Notes under the pieces: model-generated
What the model saw: the letters and a program-made list of their open reading frames with translations, nothing else
Told to the model about the DNA's origin: nothing
Database searches by the model: none
Shown: piece after piece, positions 28,760-29,195 of the stretch
How the letters are laid out: the number at the start of each line of letters is the position of its first letter
Position numbering within the stretch: position 1 is the first letter of the stretch
From: a virus
Length of the DNA stretch: 64,000 bases
Virus record (IMG/VR): IMGVR_UViG_3300005337_000003
Location: 65,799-129,798 of that record
Direction: 5' to 3' (one strand)
Made by a program: the position numbers and the translations under genes

Positions 28760-29195
28760 CGGCTAAACATTGATCCATTGTAAATCGCTGCAAATAGGCG
28801 TTTAGATTGTACTTATTGGAGGTAAACCAATTAAAAATACCCCATATAGGACAGTAGTTTACATAAAGATACTAATCCTGAATTGACAGGATGATGAACC
28901 GGAGGATTTACCATACACTATATATCTTAACAGACTAGAGTGTTCTTAAGTGGAGTAGATCGCCGTAGTAGTTGCTGTAAAGCTAGATGTGTTGTTCCCT
29001 TGAGAAAGGAATCGATGACCAAAGCTATTAGAGCAGTGAATAAGAGAGTAAGGGACAAAGGTAGCTCTACAACACAAATGAGACTCAGCAAGTAGTTAGT
29101 TACATTCCTAGTCTTAATTGATAGAGTGTGTAATACGATGGCTTAACATTAGCTTCTAACTATGTGACCCTACTCTTTCAGCAGACAAGAGGGTG
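28760..29195 (+). ncRNA. Large multi-stem (ornate) ncRNA candidate
   Basis: ORF-free; boxA-like GTTCTTTGAA at 28744; about 10 stems including TGTGTTGT/ACAACACA, TTGCTG/CAGCAA, TAGTTAG/CTAACTA. Confidence 0.6.

Follow-up and report, generated by a model that had tools for sequence, protein, structure and literature searches.

A probable structured non-coding RNA gene of the phi14:2 g004-g005 family in a crAss-like phage genome

The stretch of DNA analyzed here, hereafter the window, comprises the final 64,000 nt of a virus record from IMG/VR (IMGVR_UViG_3300005337_000003), which measures 129,798 bp and carries direct terminal repeats. At positions 28601-29222 it contains a 620-nt non-coding gap between two small genes, which raises the question of what this interval holds. 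A sequence-only reading had placed a large multi-stem phage RNA of the GOLLD/ROOL kind, either a divergent member or a new class, at 28760-29195. Our analysis points to a structured non-coding RNA gene of about 445 nt at 28760-29205 on the plus strand, belonging to the family of the long non-coding RNA transcribed from the g004-g005 junction of the Cellulophaga crAss-like phage phi14:2, a reading to which we assign a probability of about 0.85. The phi14:2 transcript is already published; its homologue, the conserved blocks and the helices are described here.

Homology to the phi14:2 transcript

The g004-g005 and g005-g006 junctions of phi14:2 are transcribed rightward at levels above those of most protein-coding genes, from the earliest time point on and undiminished, and the g004-g005 transcript was termed a long non-coding RNA by Drobysheva et al., whose report gives no structure, family or function for it and names GSE133609 as the public RNA-seq data of this phage (bioRxiv 10.1101/2020.03.07.982082). 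When positions 2905-3589 of NC_021806 were searched against the genome under study with nhmmer, a single hit was obtained (E 8.8e-16, 53.1 bits), in which positions 111-386 of the phi14:2 query correspond to 28855-29179 of the window on the plus strand. The similarity is made up of four collinear BLAST blocks with 84-94% identity, between which lie unalignable inserts that vary in length and disrupt every reading frame. No match to the other junction of phi14:2 (g005-g006) was present in this genome. BLAST returned no phage match to the region at default thresholds, because in a database of 2.3 Gb the E values of 25-40-nt blocks exceed 1e-5; once the threshold was relaxed, phi14:2 was recovered at E 7e-5.

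By BLAST of the window RNA against viral records, a third lineage was found, namely the IMG/VR crAss-like phage G006 (89.7 kb) and the identical G007. This version is compact, the conserved blocks B0, B1, B2 and B3 lying within about 280 nt (L238:1322-1605) of a 453-nt gap, and a hairpin with a U tract follows directly after B3. A 5' block (GGCTAAACATTGA..GTAAAT) is common to the window, phi14:2 and G006, and the 5' boundary was therefore placed at about 28761. The 3' domain alone recurs in two myophages of Cellulophaga, phi4:1 and phi17:2, where it occupies a gap of 143 nt (L235:1466-1608 and L236:1466-1608) located two genes upstream of a gene annotated as replication initiation protein. This recurrence places the 3' end of the window RNA near 29200, and the distribution of the sequence suggests that the 3' domain may work as an independent module. 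Together, the 5' block and the 3' domain widen the homology to about 28761-29200, and the ends originally proposed from the letters, 28760 and 29195, lie within about 10 nt of the first and last conserved blocks. The order B0, B1, B2, B3, 3' domain is kept on the strand of the flanking genes, with G006 having no 3' domain.

BLAST found no more members in 147 further viral records, and block B2 was absent from all 401 Bacteroidota genomes searched (401/401). A match to B2 in Pseudoalteromonas phage HM1 was rejected as a chance similarity, since no other block lies nearby and the match is opposite a minus-strand open reading frame (ORF). There was no matching Rfam model for the family, and the literature searched contained no description of the family or of its structure.

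The conserved product is not a protein. The earlier observation that the region has no plus-strand ORF was borne out, the longest ORFs in the gap reaching only 51-57 amino acids, and neither stop-codon reassignment nor any alternative genetic code opened a hidden ORF in 28601-29222. A dicodon (hexamer) coding score trained on the long ORFs of the genome was negative in all six frames of the gap, a score that is also weak for the atypical flanking genes. None of the small gap ORFs had a Pfam, PHROG or protein match; the 54-amino-acid ORF on the minus strand had no relative among 1.84 billion proteins, and the 51-amino-acid ORF gave no usable match in the ESM Atlas. The conserved blocks contain 1-nt indels, with stop codons in all frames, and these single-base indels exclude a protein product. 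The ORFs formerly annotated in the homologous region of phi14:2 were removed by RefSeq. Two origins of the gap were also considered and rejected: a pseudogene remnant, of which six-frame tblastn against all fetched loci and the genome found no trace, and a duplicated start of the downstream gene, for which the similarity was not significant.

Conserved blocks and helices

Block B0 (GGCTAAACATTGATCC..GTAAAT, 28761-28786) is the first conserved block and starts at 2913 in phi14:2 and at 1324 in G006. RNAalifold pairs it to block B1 through helix H1, formed by TGTAAAT (28779-28785, in B0) and GTTTACA (28857-28863, in B1), which has 7 bp in the window, one of them G.U, and 7 bp in G006, all Watson-Crick, with one A.C mismatch in phi14:2. 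Block B1 (GTTTACATAAAGATACTAAT, 28855-28894) is 92% identical to phi14:2 over 39 nt; its H1 arm, the 3' one, precedes the hairpin ATCCTG(28875)/CAGGAT(28887). Block B2 (28984-29010) contains the 5' arm of helix H2, TGTGTTGT (28988-28995), and directly thereafter hairpin H3 (28996-29010) with a GAGA loop. The next part of the RNA (29043-29082) consists of hairpin H4, formed by AGAG (29043-29046) and CTCT (29065-29068), and block B3, in which the 3' arm of H2, ACAACACA (29069-29076), is followed by an invariant AAAUGAG. Beyond it, the 3' domain (29083-29205), shared with phi14:2 and partly with phi4:1 and phi17:2, comprises helix H5 (GTAGTTAG at 29092-29099 with CTAACTAT at 29156-29163), helix H6 (ACCCU-A-CU at 29167-29174 with AG-AGGGU at 29188-29194) and the tail GCUAAACAA. 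The family blocks can be written as sequence patterns such as TAGATGTGTTGTNNCCTTGAGAAAG and TACAACACAAATGAG.

The helices are kept in the homologues in different ways. The arms of H2 are identical in the three lineages, and in all three homologues H2 is the closing helix when the B2-B3 domain is folded, unconstrained, to its minimum free energy (MFE). In H3, two pairs are changed on both sides (U-A/C-G/U.G and C-G/A-U), with 100% of the cells paired. Across H2 and H3, 39 of 39 cells pair, compared with 33-62% when the partners are slid by 1-3 columns. H4 shows a compensatory difference, being AGAG/CTCT in the window versus AAGGA/TCCTT in phi14:2. The arms of H6 are invariant and enclose a loop that ranges from 9 nt in the window to about 45 nt in phi4:1 and about 56 nt in phi14:2, and the window and phi14:2 sequences, each folded alone, give the same H5/H6 layout. 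A covariance model of the core (H2 and H3) scored 84-101 bits on the three members, with G006 at 100.6 bits, and gave a single hit in the genome, on the plus strand (83.7 bits, E 2.2e-20); as the window was among the three sequences used for training, this hit shows uniqueness in the genome and not independent recognition. In 50 phage records, the model found nothing beyond the three members at E <= 0.01.

Compared as a whole, the window RNA and the phi14:2 RNA (NC_021806, about 2913-3375) share homologous sequence, block order, similar length and the strand of the flanking early genes, as well as the H2/H3/H4 junction, the H5/H6 3' domain and a crAss-like carrier with a virion RNA polymerase. 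They differ in their variable regions, where the window carries additional inserts (22, 17 and 11 nt) and the much shorter H6 loop, and in that their flanking genes are unrelated and the TerL identity between the two phage groups is about 26%. The G006/G007 RNA agrees with the window in B0-B3 and in H1, H2 and H3, but at about 280 nt it has neither the ATCCTG/CAGGAT hairpin nor any part of the 3' domain, and instead ends in the terminator hairpin and U tract after B3. The conserved blocks, the kept helices and the tolerated inserts argue for a functional folded RNA as opposed to transcriptional noise, and the B0-B3 portion, as it stands in G006, offers a minimal core for study.

The complementary strings from which the RNA had first been proposed were all found in place: TTGCTG at 28972 and CAGCAA at 29086, TGTGTTGT and ACAACACA at 28988 and 29069, TAGTTAG at 29093 and CTAACTA at 29156, TTACAT at 29100 and GTGTAA at 29128, CTAAAC at 28763 and GTTTAG at 28800, ATTGG at 28815 and CCAAT at 28827, ATCCTG and CAGGAT at 28875 and 28887, and CTCTT at 29173 and AAGAG at 29187. 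As pairs they fared unevenly. Four of them have both arms in blocks that phi14:2, and in part G006, also possesses: TGTGTTGT/ACAACACA, TAGTTAG/CTAACTA, ATCCTG/CAGGAT and CTCTT/AAGAG. In contrast, TTGCTG falls inside an insert specific to the window, and for CTAAAC/GTTTAG the homologues offer no complementary counterpart, so that TTGCTG/CAGCAA and CTAAAC/GTTTAG are the two proposed pairs that are not conserved. Perfect complementary words of 5 to 8 nt are as frequent in the region as in shuffles, with one 8-mer pair versus 1.69 expected and 28 6-mer pairs versus 23.8. It is thus conservation, and not the count of pairs, that gives these pairs their meaning.

Alternative explanations and proposed function

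Several results weigh against the reading of the region as a folded RNA gene or limit what it says. The region 28760-29195 is no more stable than its dinucleotide shuffles, with an MFE z of -0.21 on the plus strand and -0.02 on the minus strand. The observed covariation score, computed from three sequences only, is reached by 108 of 500 shuffles, and it carries no statistical weight because only three independent lineages were aligned; H2, H5 and H6 never vary and are therefore silent for or against pairing. Both ends of the RNA were set by conservation only, expression has been shown for the phi14:2 member only, and the function proposed below is a guess in which protein binding is putative. 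The first of these results, taken with the chance-level frequency of complementary words and the lack of an Rfam hit and of a default-threshold DNA match, is what an ordinary spacer with fortuitous complementarity would give. That explanation is scarcely credible, as it is refuted by the collinear-block homology to phi14:2 (E 8.8e-16) and G006 and by the core-model hit. As a lesson of method, the region looked ordinary by MFE z-score, by the count of complementary words and by BLAST at its default threshold.

Conservation at the level of the DNA, as in an origin, a packaging site or a protein-binding region, would fit the AT-rich composition of the region (37% GC) and the position of the 3' domain in phi4:1 near the annotated replication initiation protein gene. 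This is very unlikely, given that the phi14:2 homologue is among the most abundant transcripts of its phage (bioRxiv 10.1101/2020.03.07.982082), that the G.U pairs of H1 in the window and of H3 in G006 and phi14:2 work on the plus strand only, and that no iterons or repeats were found, the GC-skew minimum lying near 25 kb, away from the RNA site. We regard as unlikely, though less so, a long structured 5' leader that acts in cis on the downstream gene at 29223-29651 and gives no independent RNA. In keeping with such a leader, about 20 nt, with no terminator, separate the end of the RNA from the ATG at 29223, and a host-type promoter was looked for in this interval and not found. Yet the downstream gene is different in each carrier: in phi14:2 more gene-free DNA comes after the RNA, in G006 the hairpin and U tract are followed by an unrelated ORF, and in phi4:1 gp172 is next. 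Moreover, homologues of the downstream gene elsewhere have no such leader.

An independent RNA gene of the phi14:2 family thus remains the preferred reading, which leaves its relation to the known large phage RNAs. No Rfam model was matched at its gathering score over the whole window or at E <= 10 over 28500-29400, and a search of 19.5-30 kb gave nothing relevant; consequently, the RNA falls outside GOLLD and ROOL as their models define them. Of the two possibilities raised by the sequence-only reading, the divergent GOLLD/ROOL member is thereby set aside, and the new class is favored by the homology to phi14:2. Like ROOL and GOLLD, the window RNA is a large, phage-borne, protein-free gene in a gene-poor region, with several long-range helices and hairpins of variable length. 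It differs from both in sharing no sequence blocks with them, and its length of about 445 nt is smaller than that of GOLLD, which has a conserved 3' region and many members above 800 nt (PMC12286853). ROOL has a P1-P19 architecture, and cryogenic electron microscopy of ROOL and GOLLD is reported in the same work (PMC12286853). Of the two highly abundant early non-coding transcripts for which the phi14:2 paper offered no explanation, one now has a recognizable homologue in a crAss-like phage with only about 26% TerL identity. The family is a candidate for a new Rfam entry, and it is tractable to study, since phi14:2 can be cultivated.

By analogy with phi14:2, the RNA would be made early, from the same strand as the early genes, and would probably be transcribed by the virion-packaged RNA polymerase, a homologue of which is encoded by the phage. 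Transcription would start just past the terminator-like hairpin at 28712-28738, and the RNA would be stable and abundant throughout infection. Because the neighboring genes differ in every carrier phage, an action in trans is favored over control in cis. As a tentative guess, more probably wrong than right, the RNA could be a trans-acting scaffold or decoy that holds a host or phage protein during takeover. Putative sites of protein binding would be the invariant unpaired stretches ACAUAAAGAUACUAAU, AAAUGAG and GUGCUAA.

A more specific role was suggested by the large ORFs of the structural arm. The portal gene, the TerL gene and other large ORFs of this arm have a CA-repeat leader (ACACAACACA..) directly before the ATG, for example, at 2525-2540 and 4768-4785 of the window (minus strand) and at 59808 and 64202 of the genome. 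The 3' arm of H2, ACAACACA, together with AAUG copies this CA-rich leader, and the 5' arm, UGUGUUGU, is complementary to the leaders. Ten copies of ACAACACA occur in the genome, of which four (4/10) are found 0-6 nt ahead of a start codon, those of TerL, portal and two further large ORFs, and two (2/10) in the RNA. H2 could then act as a leader/anti-leader switch that pairs with late mRNA leaders or titrates a leader-recognizing factor and so times late translation. We consider this quite unlikely, because phi14:2 and G006, which have identical H2 arms, show no enrichment of the word elsewhere in their genomes. Separately, a palindromic word, TTTACTTTTTTAGTAAA, precedes several of the CA-repeat leaders and is a possible late promoter.

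Genomic surroundings and source phage

The only strongly structured piece of the gap lies just 5' of the RNA, at 28604-28745 on the plus strand (MFE z = -3.9, with 0/200 shuffles equally stable). The upstream gene's stop codon immediately precedes this multi-stem element, which is richer in GC than the sequence downstream (52% vs 37%). A TGGCCCC/GGGGCCA stem encloses two hairpins (ACTGGTGGC/GCCGCCAGT and GATCTGTCTGC/GCAGGACAGATTC), which are mutually exclusive or pseudoknot-capable, and the terminator-like hairpin at 28712-28738 comes next and ends the element. A model built from 28604-28745 found a short form, with the inner 84 nt missing, in one other uncultured phage (IMGVR_UViG_3300035698_011327, L233:1330-1408, minus strand; 26 bits, E 1.7e-5). 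Fifteen of the 16 hits of a pattern scan for the element were discarded as chance matches in coding DNA. We took the element to belong to the upstream gene, as its 3' terminator module, and to be separate from the RNA family. The sequence-only reading had the RNA preceded by a terminator and a boxA-like motif; both are present, the latter as GTTCTTTGAA at 28744, but the boxA-like word is not enriched, with 9 matches versus 6.2 expected. A clean intrinsic terminator (GAAGCCGG..CCGGCUUU, then a U run) was seen at 26581-26689, at the end of the gene at 26228-26650, and was weakly picked up by the model of the upstream element.

The RNA lies in the plus-strand arm, about 6 kb beyond the strand switch, among several gene-free gaps. 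The upstream gene (28190-28600, plus strand) encodes a Cys-rich small protein of 136 amino acids with 32 full-length homologues at 47-55% identity, for which no Pfam or PHROG family was matched, and the neighbors of these homologues are different in every other phage. The downstream gene (29223-29651, plus strand) encodes a 142-amino-acid protein of a widespread small phage family with the motif CIYGQMTG and has a paralogue at 41510-41923; its homologues in other phages stand in tightly packed gene rows with no gap upstream. Among about 230 loci fetched via homologues of the flanking genes from metagenome, viral and genome collections, none kept the neighborhood, the gap or similar DNA.

The portal protein and TerL match the crAss-type PHROGs phrog_6681 and phrog_6547, TerL is 25-26% identical to Crassvirales terminases, and a 3099-amino-acid ORF in the other half of the genome matches the virion RNA polymerase of phi14:2 (6VR4) at E 1.8e-22. 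Because of the crAss-type portal and TerL and the 6VR4 homologue, the source phage is classified, from its sequence, as a deep-branching crAss-like phage.

Bacteroidota-type promoters (TTTG, about 19-21 nt, TAtaTTTG) were observed at 22400-22510, 23091 and 27387, with good examples at 22423 (minus strand), 22472 (plus strand) and 27387 (plus strand). They point both ways at the strand switch and also occur upstream of the gene at 27702, and no promoter of this type (TTTG..TAnnTTTG) was found on the plus strand of the gap. Their presence fits a Bacteroidota host and transcription of some genes by the host polymerase. A 400-amino-acid protein of phrog_1362 is encoded at 30538-31740, with relatives at 45-59% identity in metagenome-assembled genome contigs of Bacteroidota, Ignavibacteria and Kapabacteria and at 35% identity in mycobacteriophages. 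These relatives hint at the host range of the phage group.

Two further features of the window were recorded. ARAGORN called an 87-nt tRNA-Gln(UUG) at 25666-25752, in an ORF-poor, GC-rich stretch, where the Rfam tRNA model gave no match even at E <= 5; the call is doubtful, or the tRNA is atypical. At 39718-39900, a 15-bp unit (CAACGCCGGTAATCG-like) is repeated in about 12 tandem copies inside the ORF at 39375-40235, where it would encode a pentapeptide repeat in the predicted protein.
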